Shown: in pieces, positions 1 through 60,514 of the stretch
Position numbering within the stretch: the stretch's first letter is position 1
How the letters are laid out: each line of letters starts with the position of its first letter
NCBI GenBank assembly: GCA_965214705.1
Contig: CBDCCI010000002.1
Coordinates: 544,001 to 608,000, forward strand
Direction: 5' to 3'
Length of the DNA: 64,000 nucleotides
Source of the DNA: Alphaproteobacteria bacterium
GTDB lineage: Bacteria > Pseudomonadota > Alphaproteobacteria > UBA828
The notes under the pieces: generated by a model
The model's database searches: none
What the model was told of the DNA's origin: nothing
Seen by the model: the letters and a program-made list of their open reading frames with translations, nothing else
Program-made: the position numbers and the translations under genes

Positions 1-373
1 ATGCCGGGGATCGGCGGCGATGGTGCGCAGGGTCTCGGCGACCGTCTTGAACAGGATGCCGAAGACGACCCTGCGGTTGCCGAAGCCGATGGCGGCGATC
101 TGGGCTGGCAGGGTGAAGACCGCGTGGAAGTAGGGCACCGGCAGGAGCTCGGCGGCGCGTGCCTCGCTCCATCGGTTGGCTGCCAACCCCTGGCAGCTCG
201 GGCAGTGGCGGTTGCGACAGGAATTGTAAAGCGGATGCTCGCGCCCGCAGCCCTCACAGGCGTAGATGTGCCCGCCGAGCACGGCGGTGCGGCGTAAGCG
301 GTACGCAGACCCCATACCGGAATCTGGCTTGACTACGACGGGGATTTCTTGAGGAGCGCCGTGAGCGCGCGAG

Positions 374-4654: not shown

Positions 4655-5506
4655 ATGCCCACCGTCAAGCTCGACCAGCGCCGGGTCGATGCCCTGATAC
4701 CCCGCAAGTGCGCCTACGACGTGCGCGACAGGGACCTCAAAGGCTTCGGCCTGCGGGTCTGGCCGTCGGGAAAGAAGCGCTACTTCGTCCACAGCCAATA
4801 CGAGGGCCGGCGCGTCTGGAAGACCGTCGCCAGCGCCGAGAGCGCGAGCGCTGGCGAAGCCCGCGCGCGGGCATCCACGATGCTCGCCGCGATCCGGCTA
4901 GGCGGCGACGCGCGCCCGTCGCACGAGGAAGCCGTGTTCGAGGCCGTCGCCGACGAGGTCTTCACGCGCTACGCGCGAAACTGGAAGCCCGGAACCCTCA
5001 AGGTCAACCGGAACTACTACCGCAACCACATCCTGCCACGCTTCAAGGGCCGCCCGATCACCGGCATCGACAGCCGCGACGTTCGGCAGTGGTTCGCATC
5101 GCTCCACGCGACGCCCGCTGCAGCGGACCGGTCCGCTCCGATCCTGTCCGTCATCATGCGTCAGGCCGAGATCTACGGCTATCGCCCGGAAGGCAGCAAC
5201 CCGTGCAAGGGCATCAAGCGATACCGGCGCCAAGGGCGCGAACGGTTCCTGTCGGCGGCGGAGATGCGCAGCCTGGCTGCGGCACTCGGCCGCTTCGAGG
5301 CCGACCGTCCACAGCAGGTCGCCATCATCAGGCTGCTGTTGCTGACCGGGTGTCGCGGTAGCGAGGTTCGCACGCTGAAGTGGCGCTACCGGCGCGAGGG
5401 CAAGCTGTTCCTGCCCGATAGCAAGACCGGGCCGCGAACGGTCTGGCTGTCGTCCGCCGCTGGCGCGGTCCTGGACCGCGTACCGCAAACCGCAAGCTGG
5501 ATTTGA
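4655..5506 (+). pseudogene. Tyrosine integrase with arm-binding N-terminus, C-terminally truncated
   Basis: Paralog of 49422..50543 (GFGLRV, LLLTGCR, DSKTGPR); lacks HxxR/H/Y because the element starting at 5503 supplies the TGA. Confidence 0.87.
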
Positions 5507-5733
5507 ACGAAGCCGCTACGCGGAGTTAGCGGCGTAGAGTTCATTCATTTCCGAGGCGTCGCGGGTGCCGTTTGCCCTGTGCGTTCGCTTCCCGGTTGCG
5601 TCAGTGGCGCTCCGCCCGTCGAGTGGCGGATCCCCGGCAGCCTCCCGATCACCAGTGGTTAGCATCGACCCCTGCGACGGACCGTCGCCGGATCGGTCCG
5701 GCGGCGCGCCGTCGCGATCCAGGGAGATCGATA

Positions 5734-6612
5734 ATGACCGGGACCGCGTGCGACACGAACACCGTCACCCCTCTTCGCCAGCGCATGGAGGAGCAGCTCC
5801 GCATCGCCAATCTGGCCGCGAGCACGTCCAAGGCCTACATCTGCGAGATCAAGAACCTGGCCAGGTACTACGACGCCTCGCCGGACGAGCTCGACGCCGA
5901 GCAGGTGCGCCAGTGGTACCTGGGGCGGATCGACAAGGGGCTCAGTCCGGGCACGACCAACGTCTCCTTCGCCGCGCTGAACTTCCTCTACATCGACACA
6001 CTCGGCTGGCCTGACCACGTCGCCGGCCTGCGCTCCCGCAAGAAGCCCGGCAAGCTGCCGCGCTACATGTCGGAGCAGGAGGTCGAGCACCTCATCCTTG
6101 CGACGCCCGACCTCCGCCACCGTGCTGCCATTGTCACCGGCTATGGCGGCGGGCTCCGCATCTCCGAGACCTTGGCCATCAAGGTCGGCGACATCCTGTC
6201 GGAGAAGAAGCTGCTGCACATCCCCTCCGGCAAAGGCGGCACCGAGAGAATGGCACCGTTGCCGGACAGCGTCATCCACTACTTGCGCGCCTACTACAGG
6301 AACATCTGGCCGCGTCCGACGAGCTGGCTCTTCTACGGCGTCTCGCTCGACAGGCCCATCGCAACGGAGACCTTGCAGGCCGCCTTCAGGAGGGCGCGCG
6401 ACATTGCCGAGCTCGACCGCAGCTACACCTTCCATTGCCTGCGCCATTCGGCGGCGACCCATCTCCTCGAGCGCGGCGGCGATATCGAGGTGATCCGGGA
6501 CATGCTCGGCCATCGAAGCGCGAACACGACCCGTCACTACGCCCGCGTCACCGGCAAGATGTTCGAGGGCCTCGACCACCCGATCTCAGGCTTCGCAGCG
6601 TTGCGCAACTGA
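5734..6612 (+). CDS. Tyrosine recombinase
   Basis: GLRISE, GKG, HCLRH, LGH, RHYA; GGGAG SD before the ATG at 5734. Confidence 0.93.
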   Translation: MTGTACDTNTVTPLRQRMEEQLRIANLAASTSKAYICEIKNLARYYDASPDELDAEQVRQWYLGRIDKGLSPGTTNVSFAALNFLYIDTLGWPDHVAGLRSRKKPGKLPRYMSEQEVEHLILATPDLRHRAAIVTGYGGGLRISETLAIKVGDILSEKKLLHIPSGKGGTERMAPLPDSVIHYLRAYYRNIWPRPTSWLFYGVSLDRPIATETLQAAFRRARDIAELDRSYTFHCLRHSAATHLLERGGDIEVIRDMLGHRSANTTRHYARVTGKMFEGLDHPISGFAALRN

Positions 6613-6915
6613 CGGCGCGTGGAGGCCGAACGCGCGGGCGTGGCGGAGATCCTCCGCCGCGCCGGCGCCGCTTTCCGTGAGCGCCACAAAGGGCGCATCG
6701 ACGCCGCCCGGCTCAAGGTCATGGGCGCCATCGAGGCGTGCCGCACCGCCGTGCTCGGCGGCCACATGTACGCCTGCGAGGGCTGCGGGCGCGAGCATCC
6801 GCTCTTCAGATACCATGAGCACGGTGGCATCGAATCGCGTCTGGCAGTTAGAGAAGCTCGGAGAGAAGGCCAGCACCTTCTCTCCGAGCGGAATCGTCAA
6901 CAACGGAGTGGACGG

Positions 6916-8112
6916 ATGTCGGATGGTCCAGACACGACCGCGCTGACAGGCGCAAGTAGTAGCACGATTTATGTCGCGGTGGAGATCAGCCTCAAATCGT
7001 GGATTGTGGGCGTGCATTGCCCGGATGCCTCGGGTGGCAGCATCAGCATCCACACACTGGCTGCTGCCGACACGGCGGGACTGTTGGATCTCGTCGGGTC
7101 GGTGCGGGAACGGGTGGCGAGGGAGCTCGGCGCCCGTCCTCGGGTGATGCTGACCTACGAGGCGGGCTACGAGGGGTTCTGGCTGGCCCGCGATATCGAG
7201 CGCCGTGACGCGGAGATCGATATCTTCATGAACGATCCGGCGAGCCTGCGGGTGAACCGGCGCGCCAAGAAGAAAAAGACCGACCGCATCGACGCGAGGA
7301 GAATGGTTCGGGCTCTGAAGGCATGGGACCAAGGCGATTCGGAGGCCATGTCCTGGGTGCGCGTGCCCGACGTGGACCGGGAGGACGCCAAGCGCCTGCT
7401 GCGCGAGAGGGACACGCTGATCAGCGAGCGTACCCGCGTCAACAACCGGATCAAAGGGCTCTTGCAGTTGCACGGCATCTTCGATCTGGCGCCGCGCAAG
7501 CCGGACTTCCTCGAACGCCTCGCGGCCGCGCGGACGGGCTATGGGGCGCCGTTGCCGCCGCGGGCGCGTGCGGAGATCGAGAGGGCGGTGCGGATGCTTC
7601 GCCTGGTTGAGGACCATATCGAGATGATCGAGGCCGAGAAGAAGGCCCTGCTGAAGGCTGGCCGGAAAACCCAGGACGCGACCGACGGTGACGGGACGGC
7701 GATGATCGCGGCGCTTACGCGCATCCACGGCATCGGCCTCAATGACGCCACACTGCTGGCTGGCGAGGTGTTCTATCGGGACTTCCGCAATCGCCGGGAG
7801 TTGGGCAGCTGGGCCGGGTTGACGTCGGTGCCGTGGGCGAGCGGAGATGTCGACCACGATCTTGGCATCAGCAAGGCCGGCCCCTCGCATGTCAGGAAGC
7901 ACATGATCCAGATGGCCTGGCGCTGGTTGAAACTGCAACCGGAAAGCGCGATCACGAAGTGGTTCCATGCCTACGTCGCCAGGGATGCCGGTGGCGGGAG
8001 GGACCGGCGAGCGAGGAAGCGGGCGATCGTGGGGGTCGCGCGCAAGCTGCTGATCGCGCTGTGGCGCTATGCCACCCAGGGACTGGTGCCCGAGGGCGCC
8101 ATCGTCTCCTGA
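6916..8112 (+). CDS. IS110/IS1111 recombinase (DEDD RuvC-like)
   Basis: IYVAVEIS, YEAG, KTDRIDA, GIG, WAGL...ASG, GISKAG and ARKLLIALW motifs. Confidence 0.92.
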   Translation: MSDGPDTTALTGASSSTIYVAVEISLKSWIVGVHCPDASGGSISIHTLAAADTAGLLDLVGSVRERVARELGARPRVMLTYEAGYEGFWLARDIERRDAEIDIFMNDPASLRVNRRAKKKKTDRIDARRMVRALKAWDQGDSEAMSWVRVPDVDREDAKRLLRERDTLISERTRVNNRIKGLLQLHGIFDLAPRKPDFLERLAAARTGYGAPLPPRARAEIERAVRMLRLVEDHIEMIEAEKKALLKAGRKTQDATDGDGTAMIAALTRIHGIGLNDATLLAGEVFYRDFRNRRELGSWAGLTSVPWASGDVDHDLGISKAGPSHVRKHMIQMAWRWLKLQPESAITKWFHAYVARDAGGGRDRRARKRAIVGVARKLLIALWRYATQGLVPEGAIVS

Positions 8113-8460
8113 GGACAGCAGCCGAACGAACAGGAGAATACAGGAGGTTCCGACGTGGTCGGACGCGGCCGCGGAGGATGCCGGGCAAGGCGTGTGACCG
8201 GGCAAGAGTTGGGTCGCCGCTTGGCACCGTTCTACAGATGGGTCCCGCCTCCCGGAACGTCGTTACCGCTTGGATGCGGTATTGGGGTCACGGAGCCGGC
8301 AAGCGCCGGAGTTCCGAACCGGATAAGAGCTGAGCAGCGTGACGAATCGCTGCGTGGGAAGGACGTTCTGCCTGGCCATCAACCGCGGAAAACGGAAAAA
8401 GACTCGAAGGGGAGAACAGGAATGCCATTGACGTAGATGAAGCCGGGCCTTGCGGAGAGA
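8113..8460 (+). ncRNA. Putative seekRNA/bridge RNA of the IS1111 element
   Basis: Non-coding 3' region. GGCAAGAGTTG (8201-8211) matches the target bottom strand 10/11; CCGTTCTACA (8227-8236) matches the top strand 8/10; a short hairpin lies between them. RNA ends are approximate. Confidence 0.7.
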
Positions 8461-9833
8461 GCTCATAAGAACTCCTGCCGCAACCGCCACTGCCCCACCT
8501 GCCAGGGTCTCGCCGCCAACCTCTGGAGCGAGGAGCGCGCCGGGGACATCCTGCCGGTGCCCTACTTCCATGTGGTCTTCACCCTGCCCAAGGAGGTTGC
8601 CGCCATTGCCTTCTGCAACCGCAGGGTGGTGTTCGACATCCTCTTCCGGGCCGTCGCCGAGACCCTGCGCACCATCGCCGCCGATCCCCGCCACGGCGGC
8701 ATGCGCATCGGCGGCACCGCGGTCCTCCATACCTGGGATCAGAAGCTCCGCTTCCACCCGCACCTGCACGTGGTCGTGCCCAACGCGGGCTTCGACGTAG
8801 ACAGCGGCGAGTGGAAGACGGGGAGCACCACCTTCCTCGCCCCCGTCAAGGTCCTCGGCAGCCTGTTCCGCCGCCTCTTCCTCGAGGAGCTCGCCCGCGC
8901 CCACGGCCGGGGGGACCTGGAGTTCCACGGCACCCTCGCCCCACCTCGCCAATCCCGGCGAGTTCCACGCCACGCTTGCCGCCGCCCGGGCCAGGGACTG
9001 GGTGGTCTACGCCAAGCGGCCCTTCCGCGGGCCTGAGCAGGTCTTCCGGTACCTGTCGCACTACACGCACAGAATCGCCATCTCCGACAGCCGCATCGTC
9101 TCCTTCGACGGCGAGACGGTCTCCTTCCGCCACCGCAAGCCGAAGGCGCCGGGGCAGAGAAAGCCGCGCTACGGCATCGCCACCGTGAGCGCCGACGAGT
9201 TCATCCGCCGCTTCCTGATGCACGTCCTGCCGGACGGCATGCACCGCATCCGCTACTTCGGCATTCTCGCCAACGGCTGTCGCGCCAGCACGCTGGAGAG
9301 AGCACGCCAGACTCTCGGCGCCCTCGGCTGCGCCGTCCCCGAGGAAAGCGTGGGCGGCGCTCGGGCCGAGCCCGACGAAGAGACCGTGATCGACACCGCG
9401 CCCGTGGCCTGCCCCCACTGCGGCGGCGTCATGCGCCTCGTCCGCGAAATCCGCCGCCGCCATCAGCCCCGCTCGACGCGCGGTCCGCCGGCCGTGCCGC
9501 CGACCCACAGGGGGAAACCGTGAGACGCCCGCTCGCTTCGGCCCCGCGCAACGGCGCCAAAGCGCCGACGCACGACCGAACCTGTCTCCGCTTGGGCCGG
9601 GCTGACAGCCCTCGGCTCACACCCCGCTCAGTCCTCGCAGCGTGCGCCCGCATGCCTGCCGAAAGGCCGGCGCGAGCGTCGATCTCATGCGCAACTCTGC
9701 TGCCGGTGGATGCCTGTCAATCGGCTTTCAAAATTGACCCCCTATCGGCGTCCAAAATTGACCCCCCTGAGTGGTAAGCGGTATCGGGCCCCCATACTTC
9801 CAGCGGATCTGATTTCGGGGCTGACTCTCCGCC

Positions 9834-54164: not shown

Positions 54165-55406
54165 TCACGGTTTCCCCCTGTGGGTCGGCGGCAGCGCCGG
54201 CGGGCCGCGCGTCGAGCGGGGCTCATGGCGGCGGCGGATTTCGCGGACGAGGCGCATGACGCCGCCGCAGTGGGGGCAGGCCACGGGCGCGGTGCCGATC
54301 TCGGGCTCTTCGTCGGGCTCGGCCCGAGCGCCGTCCACGCTTCCCTCGGGGGCGGCGCAGCCGAGGGCGCCGAGAGCCTGGCGTGCTCTCTCCAGCGTGC
54401 TGGCGCGGCAGCCGTTGGCGAGGATGCCGAAGTAGCGAATGCGGTGCATGCCGTCCGGCAGGACGTGCCTCAGGAAGCGGCGGATGAACTCGTCGGCGCT
54501 CACGGTGGCGATGCCGTAGCGCGGCTTTCTCTGCCCCGGCGCCTTGGGCTTTCGGTGGCGGAAGGAGACCGTCTCGCCGTCGAAGGAGACGATGCGGCTG
54601 TCGGAGATGGCGATCCTGTGCGTGTAGTGCGAGAGGTACCGGAAGACCTGCTCAGGCCCGCGGAAGGGCCGCTTGGCGTAGACCACCCAGTCCCTGGCCC
54701 GGGCGGCGGCAAGCGTGGCGTGGAACTCGCCGGGATTGGCGAGGTGGGCGAGGGTGCCGTGGAACTCCAGGTCCCCCCGGCCGTGGGCGCGGGCGAGCTC
54801 CTCGAGGAAGAGGCGGCGGAACAGGCTGCCGAGGACCTTGACGGGGGCGAGGAAGGTGGTGCTCCCCGTCTTCCACTCGCCACTGTCTACGTCGAAGCCC
54901 GCGTTGGGCACGACCACGTGCAGGTGCGGGTGGAAGCGGAGCTTCTGATCCCAGGTATGGAGGACCGCGGTGCCGCCGATGCGCATGCCGCCGTGGCGGG
55001 GATCGGCGGCGATGGTGCGCAGGGTCTCGGCGACGGCCCGGAAGAGGATGTCGAACACCACCCTGCGGTTGCAGAAGGCAATGGCGGCAACCTCCTTGGG
55101 CAGGGTGAAGACCACATGGAAGTAGGGCACCGGCAGGATGTCCCCGGCGCGCTCCTCGCTCCAGAGGTTGGCGGCGAGACCCTGGCAGGTGGGGCAGTGG
55201 CGGTTGCGGCAGGAGTTGAAGAGCGGATGCTCGCGCCCGCAGCCCTCGCAGGCGTACATGTGGCCGCCGAGCACGGCGGTGCGGCACGCCTCGATGGCGC
55301 CCATGACCTTGAGCCGGGCGGCGTCGATGCGCCCTTTGTGGCGCTCACGGAAAGCGGCGCCGGCGCGGCGGAAGATCTCCGCCACGCCCGCGCGTTCGGC
55401 CTCCAC
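54165..55406 (-). CDS. IS91-family (Y2/HUH) transposase
   Basis: NSCRNRHCPTC, LHTW...HPHLH, YLSHY, RIRYFG, C-terminal CPHCG. Confidence 0.93.
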   Translation of the reverse strand: MEAERAGVAEIFRRAGAAFRERHKGRIDAARLKVMGAIEACRTAVLGGHMYACEGCGREHPLFNSCRNRHCPTCQGLAANLWSEERAGDILPVPYFHVVFTLPKEVAAIAFCNRRVVFDILFRAVAETLRTIAADPRHGGMRIGGTAVLHTWDQKLRFHPHLHVVVPNAGFDVDSGEWKTGSTTFLAPVKVLGSLFRRLFLEELARAHGRGDLEFHGTLAHLANPGEFHATLAAARARDWVVYAKRPFRGPEQVFRYLSHYTHRIAISDSRIVSFDGETVSFRHRKPKAPGQRKPRYGIATVSADEFIRRFLRHVLPDGMHRIRYFGILANGCRASTLERARQALGALGCAAPEGSVDGARAEPDEEPEIGTAPVACPHCGGVMRLVREIRRRHEPRSTRGPPALPPTHRGKP

Positions 55407-60051: not shown

Positions 60052-60514
60052 ACTACGAGCCCATCCGCCACCCTGCCGGCCCAGCCTGCCCCTCACGGGG
60101 TTCCGGTTGGTGTGTGCGCACCGCCGACAGGGCTTCCCGTGTTGCTACCTCATTCCTCTTGCATGCATGCCAGCGTCAATACCCCGGCGGGTGCGAGCCG
60201 GTGCATGTATCGCTCTCTTCCCGGTCGCCAGCGGCCTTCCCCTTTTCCGCGCAGGGTCGACACCCGCATTGCCCTTTTCGAGGCCTGCTCGACGTTCGCT
60301 CTCGCTCCGGCCTGCATGCTCGCTGAGCCGCCTGAAGCGGCCCTTCTTGCCAAAGTGCTTCAATCCATGTCGTTGCCTCCATGAACCGCTCTGGCTGCTA
60401 CCAGCTGGAGCGATAGTTGCTGAGCGGGATTTGCACCCGCTGAAATGAGGCGCCCTTTCACGGCGCACGCGGAAGTCGGGTTATGGTGCCCAGAACCCGA
60501 AGGACGGATCAGCC

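Follow-up and report, generated by a model that had tools for sequence, protein, structure and literature searches.

A probably RNA-guided IS1111-type insertion sequence at a single position of IS91-like transposase genes in an alphaproteobacterial genome

A 64,000-nucleotide stretch from an alphaproteobacterium (lineage UBA828; assembly GCA_965214705.1, contig CBDCCI010000002.1, positions 544,001 to 608,000; G000:C3:544001-608000 in our numbering), hereafter the window, holds a transposase gene of an IS91-like element that is cut in two by a 1662-bp insert. How does such an insert find its place within a gene? The initial annotation of the window proposed that it is an IS1111-type insertion sequence (IS) whose putative guide RNA spells a conserved motif of IS91-like transposases. 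Our analysis indicates that positions 6808-8469 on the + strand very probably constitute an apparently intact IS1111-type IS which, judging from its sequence, chooses its insertion site by RNA. The element is an addition to the IS1111 kind that uses seekRNAs or bridge RNAs, and its mechanism is not new. The points of interest are its target, which consists of constrained transposase codons, the natural re-addressing of its relatives to other IS genes and the mismatches that are tolerated.

Comparison of filled and empty sites delimits the element, which runs from AGATACC to CATAAG. Subtracting the empty from the filled site leaves exactly the IS, with no target duplication; at each junction, target and IS have a single A, the crossover A, in common. 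The sequence is ...CCGCTCTTC|AGATACCATGAGC... at the left junction and ...GAGCTCATAAG|AACTCCTGCC... at the right one. An empty target, CCGCTCTTCAACTCCTGCC, which the initial annotation had located near 55217, occurs once in the window as against 0.02 expected. The ends of IS1111 elements are described as a 7-bp left and a 3-bp right extension lying outside the subterminal repeats (Siddiquee et al. 2024, PMC11187229), and the AGATACC and AAG extensions, fixed here from filled versus empty sites, follow this rule. Non-coding DNA amounts to 108 nt 5' of the transposase gene (6808-6915) versus 357 nt on its 3' side (8113-8469), which is the IS1111 layout, and target specificity, single orientation and the absence of duplication are those of IS1111 elements as well. 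The subterminal repeat ATGAGC/GCTCAT is perfect over 6 bp and, when extended, matches at 8/13 positions; relatives have repeats of 7 bp (ATGGGGC or ATGAGGC). All coordinates and strings given in the initial annotation (the limits of the IS, the guide segments, GGTAT and ATAAGAG) are correct, and its assignment to IS1111 is borne out by the 7/3-bp extensions, the 3' non-coding region and the order of the guide segments. The window copy carries 13 extra bases at 8388-8400 (the AAACGGAAAAAGA region), located in the distal 3' end outside the conserved RNA and missing from every other copy and from a contig of public run X5.

The host is a member of a family of 2.62-kb IS91-like elements that encode a tyrosine recombinase and an HUH-Y2 transposase. 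The gene of the latter is split by the IS into segments 6619-6807 and 8470 onward, and the Y2 domain of the same copy is also frameshifted. An intact transposase gene of the same kind (54166-55397, minus strand; 410 amino acids) matches Zn_Tnp_IS91 over residues 8-99 and Y2_Tnp over residues 141-331 (PF14319, 104 bits; PF04986, 184.4 bits), and thus belongs to the IS91 family. The two fragments of the split gene match positions 1-48 and 47-90 of the Zn_Tnp_IS91 profile, one on each side of the insert, so that the zinc-binding domain is split between F63 and N64 of P-L-F|N-S-C. These codons, CTCTTC|AACTCCTGCC, are the target addressed by the element, and the predicted insertion target in IS91 is CTCTTCAACTCCTGCC.

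The 3' non-coding region contains GGCAAGAGTTG at 8201-8211 and CCGTTCTACA at 8227-8236, which overlap two target guides, here called T and B (Table 1). According to Siddiquee et al. (PMC11187229), the complement of the top strand lies 5' of the complement of the bottom strand in IS1111 seekRNAs, and the two matches overlap on the target. The same order is found here: the complement of the top strand (8201-8210) precedes the block in top-strand sense (8230-8237), both extend over the crossover A, and the invariant AG that follows the B guide covers the crossover and core. Segment 8201-8211 agrees with the bottom strand of the target at 10/11 positions. Four such matches occur in the window, versus 1.29 expected over 128 kb, and besides this one they comprise the target itself, its right half and an unrelated site.

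Relatives provide a direct comparison, since all copies and relatives share the scaffold of the 3' region and the guide blocks vary by element. We described this scaffold by the regular expression ...G[TA]G[TC]G[AG]CCG-(10 nt)-GGG...CCG-(6 nt)AG-A[TA]GGG, the variable blocks being those of 10 nt and 6 nt. When 15 elements are aligned with MAFFT, hypervariability is confined to the guide blocks and the rest of the stretch is conserved. A sister element at G000:C3:483684, 86% identical to the window copy, differs from it within the guide blocks by GGCAAGAG to AATAGGCG and by TCTAC to TCCAT, and its flanks, GTCCAC|ACGCCTAT, match the rewritten blocks. The target guides at 8201-8236 claimed by the initial annotation therefore change where the flanks change, in this sister and in about 15 further relatives. 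Scoring 14 cognate guide/target pairs from the source genome, its congeners and one metagenome-assembled genome (MAG) gave 11-14 matches of 16, as compared with a mean of 5.58 (s.d. 1.55, maximum 11 of 16) for 176 non-cognate pairs. The two distributions overlap only at 11/16, with 2/14 cognate and 2/176 non-cognate pairs. Three further element/target pairs from other genera fit as well, for a total of 17 pairs.

A consensus structure computed with RNAalifold on the same 15 elements comprises a target-binding module and a donor-binding module (Table 1), with the guide blocks facing each other on both sides of an internal loop between the outer and distal stems of the former. Standard pairs fill 98.0% of the cells of the 41 consensus pairs, versus 33-47% in controls in which the 3' partner was slid over 1-3 columns. 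Compensatory changes on both sides are found in 11 pairs, versus 1-3 in the slid controls, and two pairs of the stem that closes the donor module switch from UA to CG in 7/15 sequences. Structured modules of this kind, two in number and with loop nucleotides that covary with target and IS ends, are the hallmarks of the functional class of bridge and seek RNAs. An Rfam scan of the whole window returned no bridge or seek RNA family, its sole match being a group II intron domain at 60300-60442 (minus strand).

The donor module carries GGTAT at 8278-8282 and ATAAGAG at 8323-8329, the segments that the initial annotation had matched to the circle junction, and they occupy homologous positions of this second module. 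They covary with the IS ends in 15/15 aligned elements: a right end CATAAG goes with GGATAAGAG / GGAUAAGAG and CATAAA with GGATAAAAG / GGAUAAAAG, and a left end AGATACC goes with CGGUAU and AGATCC(T) with CGGGAU. This covariation indicates that what the donor guides recognize is the circle junction ...CATAAG|AGATACC..., at which the two ends abut. The right flank of the sister clade starts with AG, as does the IS itself, which points to a two-base core.

Several observations weigh against this interpretation. The 8/10 match of 8227-8236 is at the level of chance (101 matches in the window versus 88 expected), and its CCG consists of scaffold letters that are invariant in all relatives. The fold of 8113-8469 alone is no better than that of shuffled sequences (z = -1.37). 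The 6-bp repeat and the 398-residue protein fall outside the ranges quoted for IS1111, whose subterminal repeats are usually 11-13 bp (PMC11187229) or 7-17 bp (PMC11208160) by the accounts given there, and the first acidic residue of the recombinase is Glu and not Asp in all nine aligned sequences. Relatives place the T guide in different registers with respect to the crossover, from -1 to +2 nt. Where the register is +1 or +2 the T block ends in one or two C residues, which may extend the distal stem by C-G pairs and so partly explain the shift; the istB site of the sister element needs a shift of -1, outside this explanation. A single rule of core and register covering the T guide in all relatives was sought and none was found, an A-R two-base core fitting most of them. 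Finally, the sole contig from an RNA library (a metatranscriptome) spans 7546-8375 with 53 differences in 830 positions and could represent DNA carry-over. It ends five bases beyond the last stem and, if anything, hints weakly at transcription.

The chance-level left match and the unremarkable single-sequence fold are what one would expect if the matches between guides and flanks were fortuitous or compositional and the protein alone picked the target. Both guide matches nevertheless stand above chance because they have a fixed place in a conserved scaffold and covary with the flanks in relatives. An origin by chance or by protein-only recognition is already contradicted by the alignment and by the pair scoring, in which cognate and non-cognate scores touch only at 11/16, the guide blocks are the sole hypervariable parts of the scaffold and the donor guides follow the ends throughout; RNA guidance has, moreover, been demonstrated experimentally for the family (PMC11187229). 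We regard it as extremely improbable.

The gene within the element encodes a protein of 398 amino acids if translation starts at the assumed ATG 6916, versus 330-350 quoted for IS1111; its relatives have 385-398. The protein matches NCBIfam NF033542, 'IS110 family RNA-guided transposase', with 174.5 bits against a cut-off of 140 over profile positions 13-341 of 343, as well as PF01548 (31.1 versus a cut-off of 29) and PF02371 (45.8 versus 21.3), and so has the N-terminal RuvC-like DEDD domain and the C-terminal PF02371 domain that characterize the IS1111 group. E23, E82, D123, D126 and S309-G310 are invariant across nine aligned sequences, the window protein and eight relatives of 37-88% identity. 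The KTDxxDA and SG regions align to ISCro4, and E23 and E82 are tentatively assigned as acidic residues one and two of the tetrad from the positions of the motif in the family. The single sequence found no match in the PDB, and a profile of the nine-sequence clade matches ISCro4 (9t56, E 3.8e-9) and IS621 (8wt6, E 1.6e-7) over the C-terminal domain. Codons 1-63 of the IS91 transposase remain open in frame through the 108-nt left end into the IS1111-type reading frame (6619-8112, + strand), giving an open frame of 499 amino acids in most occupied copies. Read-through from the IS91 promoter could thus yield a fusion protein; the open 36-codon linker is unsurprising because the DNA is so GC-rich.

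We propose the following mechanism. The 3' non-coding region, probably co-transcribed with the transposase gene, would give rise to a structured RNA some 180 nt long (8188-8370) that comprises two programmable modules. The target module would use GGCAAGAGUU to pair with the top strand on the right-hand side of the crossover and UUCUAC-AG to pair with the bottom strand on the left-hand side. In the donor module, CGGUAU (8277-8282) and GAUAAGAG would hold the abutted ends of the excised circular IS. The recombinase, with an acidic tetrad (here E-E-D-D) and a serine, would exchange strands at the shared A, and insertion at P-L-F|N-S-C would cut the IS91 transposase gene in two. Production of the RNA, its binding by the recombinase, passage through a circle and present activity are expected by analogy with the family as described in PMC11187229 and PMC11208160. 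A promoter across the circle junction (TTGCGG, 17 nt, TACCAT), read by eye, is possible.

A BLAST search with the IS identified 21 copies of its family in the genome, 18 contiguous and full-length and three interrupted by an IS66-family element. Nineteen of them, all in the same orientation, lie at a single IS91 position (reference 1584), which agrees with the earlier proposal of a parasite of rolling-circle elements. The expectation that mapped insertions would fall in the IS91 zinc domain held for these 19; the remaining two copies are in IS21 istB genes, and relatives occupy other genes. Uninterrupted at the site are 73 IS91-like copies at >95% identity, 66 of them full length, and 17 left ends and 18 right starts of IS91 halves coincide with position 1584. 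Once translated, 68 sites, all still empty, give PLFNSC from exactly the target DNA and 18 give AHK-NSC, in which the right end of the IS is fused to the IS91 gene; one further occupied copy has TACTCC in place of AACTCC after the IS. About one fifth of the IS91-like family of some 90-100 copies is therefore hit. The window holds both PLFNSC (55185-55226, minus strand) and PLYNSC (193-234, minus strand), as the initial annotation noted for this site; of the variant IS91 sites, PLYNSC among them, 0/8 are occupied (Table 1). The guide thus reads one DNA variant and not the protein motif.

Do these 19 copies reflect as many insertions? The 17 occupied IS91 copies with both halves represent 13 single-nucleotide polymorphism haplotypes (variants at element edges ignored), at least five of which also occur, unchanged, in empty copies. 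The IS91 site is occupied by four sequence variants of the IS (100/99%, 96%, 92% and a 97/92% mosaic), and the 96% variant is also inserted, as one of the 19 copies, in a divergent, truncated IS91 relic at C1:2837886. Together, the haplotypes, the relic and the four variants argue for repeated insertion. Homologous recombination, as opposed to transposition, could nonetheless have carried some copies from one near-identical IS91 element to another, which is a further point against our interpretation. In the extreme form of this alternative, very few insertions, perhaps only one, would account for most of the 19 occupied copies, the insert having been passed on by gene conversion or by rolling-circle transposition, in trans, of an IS91 copy that carries it. 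Both processes are possible because the IS91 copies are 99.8-100% identical; 14 IS copies are likewise mutually identical, the IS91 haplotypes appear recombinant and more than 60 intact IS91 transposase genes could supply activity in trans. We consider this quite unlikely in view of the number of haplotypes, several of which exactly match empty copies, the shared variant in the divergent relic, the presence of four variants at one site and the two insertions outside IS91 at guide-matching sites. It would, in addition, leave the RNA-guided origin of the first events intact.

Public sequencing runs, searched as assembled contigs, provide a complementary view of the site. Contigs from three runs of three studies hold the IS, mostly as the 96% variant, together with the exact empty joint 6807>8470, which skips 1662 bases, and the depth of the IS is well below that of IS91 in the three runs. 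A contig of run X5 over the left junction was not counted as bridging, as it has only 29 letters on the IS91 side.

Some copies at the IS91 site have undergone further changes. The three copies interrupted by IS66 (G000:C3:1715128-1717879, or L069, C3:687934-690689 and C2:520096-522847) carry an insert of about 2.75 kb; in L069, the one examined, it encodes a full IS66-family transposase, which gives a nesting of IS66 in the IS1111-type element in an IS91-like element. At G000:C1:1873053-1874866, 165 bp from the 3' part of a divergent relative (85%) directly follow the copy, before the IS91 flank, and at G000:C1:4025031 only 9 nt of IS91 (CCGCTCTTC) remain to the left of the copy, with unrelated DNA beyond. 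Both look like rearrangements at occupied sites. One otherwise intact empty IS91 copy reads CTCTTC-AG-AACTCC, the two extra bases being the first two of the IS, and another lacks AAC (CTCTTCTCCTGCC). These could be excision scars, the AG form being unlike the product of a simple shared-core exchange.

A second kind of RNA-guided element homes into the same zinc-finger stretch of about 30 bp. Group II introns (inserts of 4-5.6 kb encoding reverse transcriptases with RVT_1 and GIIM) split at least two IS91-like copies, G000:C1:791409-795525 (L070) and G000:C3:1609612-1615235 (L071), 11-13 bp upstream of the IS1111 site at IS91 reference positions 1571-1573, and two more IS91 left halves terminate at the same position.

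How good a target is the IS91 site for the guides that address it? It matches the guide-implied ideal at 13/16 positions, one of the three differences being a U-G wobble, and the same three recur at every IS91 insertion, in line with the mismatch tolerance suggested earlier. The core also differs, being AA in the IS91 target versus AG in the donor. The right flank starts with AG in the B/C clade and with AA in the A family of the window, and, by our reading of the pairing rules, AA could be accommodated through wobble pairs both by the U-U that ends the first guide and by the A-G that follows the second. The ideal site itself, TTCTAC|AACTCTTGCC, would encode F-Y-N-S-C, and the guides thus do imply the PFYNSC target put forward by the initial annotation. 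Such a site is absent from the source genome at up to one mismatch. Two unrelated genomic sites have two mismatches and about 20 others have three; all are unoccupied. These results count against our interpretation, and they indicate that the number of mismatches alone does not predict use. Among 48 other genomes of the order, the ideal site has three one-mismatch matches versus two for a reversed control, none of them in an IS91 gene and one within a Rieske-type CPHRG motif.

Two copies lie outside IS91. The copy at G000:C3:428447, 99% identical and with the same guides, sits in an IS21 istB gene at the Walker-A codons, where the T guide matches 10/10 and, with two scaffold bases, 12/12 of GGCAAGAGTTGG (G-K-S-W). 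The sister at G000:C3:483684, with its rewritten guides, is likewise in istB, at a C-terminal motif. The IS91 site, with its three differences in 16, might then be an off-target or a recent second-best site, used often only because about 90 copies exist, the original target being the istB Walker-A codons or a PFYNSC variant of IS91. We judge this unlikely, if by no means far-fetched. The 12-mer CCAACTCTTGCC occurs 22 times in the genome, yet a single further copy, which is split by the IS and not among the 22, is occupied, with the left guide matching at only 2/6; in sum the guides match the IS91 site at 13/16 versus 12/16 for istB. The scarcity of PFYNSC-type DNA described above, in the source genome and in the order, speaks against an IS91 variant as the original target. 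The imperfect IS91 site is thus used heavily and the half-perfect istB site rarely. We conclude that the two istB copies refine, and do not refute, the reading of the element as an RNA-guided parasite of IS91.

Close relatives of the element are few. The plasmid collection searched with the IS DNA returned five records with at most 21% coverage and no close relative, and metagenome contigs scanned for the right end of the IS gave zero matches. Representative genomes hold four loci, only one of which, in a MAG, is close (86% amino acid identity). Within the order, 12/49 genomes have matches at E<=1e-40 (11/48 besides the source), all at 55% identity or less outside the source genome, and 3/400 other sampled genomes of the class have matches at E<=1e-90, with up to four candidates scored per genome, at about 55% identity. 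The source genome contains two more sub-families of the clade, groups B and C (Table 1), at about 55% amino acid identity, which use the same RNA scaffold with different guides. In group C1 the left guide is perfect and the right flank mismatches the right guide (5/10).

A Pfam scan of 60 open frames beside the junctions of relatives at 18 loci (threshold 1e-5) places relatives in or beside IS21 istB, IS110, IS4/5 and IS630 genes (Table 1); with IS91, five IS families are hit by one small clade. In eight loci (L027, L029, L067, L065, L048, L037, L040 and L045) no Pfam family was found beside the junction at this threshold. This picture of IS within IS is favoured both by survivorship, selfish DNA being a harmless place to insert, and by ascertainment. 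We tentatively suggest, and rate at somewhat less than an even chance, that the guides of the clade have been repeatedly rewritten to read constrained codons of other transposition genes, making its members natural RNA-guided parasites and inactivators of ISs. If so, the codons read would be those of the IS91 zinc finger, the IstB Walker-A motif and C-terminus, the IS110 C-terminal domain and the IS4/5 DDE domain, and about a fifth of the roughly 100-copy IS91-like family would have been knocked out in the source genome. The non-cognate core (AA versus AG) and the 3/16 guide differences would then suggest looser rules than reported for IS621.

Table 1. Features of the element, its host and its relatives (positions are those of the window unless a genomic locus is given)
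Feature	Position or locus	Strand	Remarks
Host IS91-like element	5503..9714	+	tyrosine recombinase gene 5572-6612 and HUH-Y2 transposase gene
Left terminal extension AGATACC, 7 bp	6808..6814	+	AG, donor core; ATACC, part read by the donor loop
Left subterminal inverted repeat ATGAGC	6815..6820	+	pairs with GCTCAT 8461-8466
Transposase/recombinase gene	6916..8112	+	398 amino acids if start is ATG 6916; NF033542, PF01548, PF02371
Target-binding loop module	8188..8250	+	outer stem 8188-8199/8241-8250; distal stem 8212-8214/8226-8228
T guide GGCAAGAGUU	8201..8210	+	complement of top strand, right half AACTCCTGCC, 9/10
B guide UUCUAC and invariant AG	8230..8237	+	sense of left half CTCTTC-AA; 4/6 identical and one U-G wobble
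Donor-binding module	8253..8370	+	closed by nine-pair stem 8253-8261/8362-8370
Donor guide CGGUAUU	8277..8283	+	complement of IS left end (AG)ATACC
Donor guide GAUAAGAG	8322..8329	+	sense of right end CATAAG and left-end AG (circle junction)
Right subterminal repeat GCTCAT and 3-bp right extension AAG	8461..8469	+	
Empty target site CCGCTCTTCAACTCCTGCC	55208..55226	-	intact copy of the same IS91-like transposase gene
Empty variant IS91 sites			PLYNSC CCGCTTTACAATTCCTGT, three; PLSNSC, two; CTGTTC...TCGTGC, two; CTTTTC, one
Group B	G000:C1:1327134, C1:2642223, C3:618310		in C-terminal domain of another IS110-family transposase gene
Group C	G000:C1:4108028, C3:1762712, C3:526355, C3:533389		
IstB_IS21	L002, L019		at junction
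IstB_IS21	L036		about 100 bp from junction
DDE_Tnp_1	L031		
Transposase_20	L066, L068		another IS110-family gene
DEDD_Tnp_IS110	L058		within 600 bp
DDE_3	L061		within 600 bp
Peptidase_S24	L010		non-transposition family; downstream of IS91 relic
Methyltransf_11	L025		non-transposition family

The genome offers a natural data set on an RNA-guided IS facing a multicopy selfish target, with 19 hits, about 68 identical empty sites, spared variants and a re-addressed sister, and it illustrates a possible way for one IS family to curb another. The approximately 17 natural guide/target pairs on one scaffold include wobble pairs, a mismatched core and shifts of register, and are relevant to the rules that govern specificity and off-target use in IS1111-type systems, about which less has been published than about IS621; the known mechanism is unchanged by our findings. 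Our literature search retrieved no paper describing an IS1111 or IS110 element within the transposase gene of an IS91 element, although the supplements (per-IS target logos of PMC11187229) and ISfinder, which lay outside that search, may catalogue the element or its target.

The element can be compared with several known systems. Among IS1111 members that target other mobile elements are IS4321/IS5075, which insert into the terminal repeats of the Tn21 family, IS1383, which inserts into IS1384 repeats, and the attC group. Site-specific insertion into a multicopy sequence of another mobile element is common to these and to the window element. Their targets are non-coding repeats or recombination sites, whereas the window element disrupts conserved transposase codons, and its relatives do likewise in other IS families. 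Group II introns and homing endonucleases also home into conserved coding motifs that are held constant by selection on the protein. By analogy with them, the target is highly specific or read by nucleic acid; unlike them, the window element would use recombination of a DNA circle instead of reverse splicing or double-strand-break repair, and it does not splice out, so that the host gene is killed.

The closest likeness in organization is to the IS1111 elements for which seekRNAs are described, ISEc11, ISXne4, ISKpn4, ISPst6 and ISPa11 (Siddiquee et al. 2024, PMC11187229). As in the account given of them, a transposase, here of probable DEDD type, is followed by a long 3' non-coding region, the extensions measure 7 and 3 bp, and insertion occurs in one orientation with no duplication. 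As with ISEc11 and ISXne4, close relatives are naturally re-directed by replacement of guide segments. The window element departs from these descriptions, with which it was compared by description and not by sequence, in its shorter repeat (6 versus 11-13 bp), its longer protein (398 versus 330-350 amino acids) and its first acidic residue, Glu, and its target is the transposase coding sequence of another IS in place of a REP, attC or short linear site. With the bridge recombinases IS621 and ISCro4, as presented by Durrant et al. 2024 (PMC11208160; PDB 8wt6, 9t56), it shares a short core common to donor and target and a Ser-Gly, here putatively catalytic, in the C-terminal domain. In contrast to these, its predicted RNA is located in the right end and not the left, the order of the guides is reversed and, in place of CT, there is an A-R core, with AG in the donor versus AA in the target.

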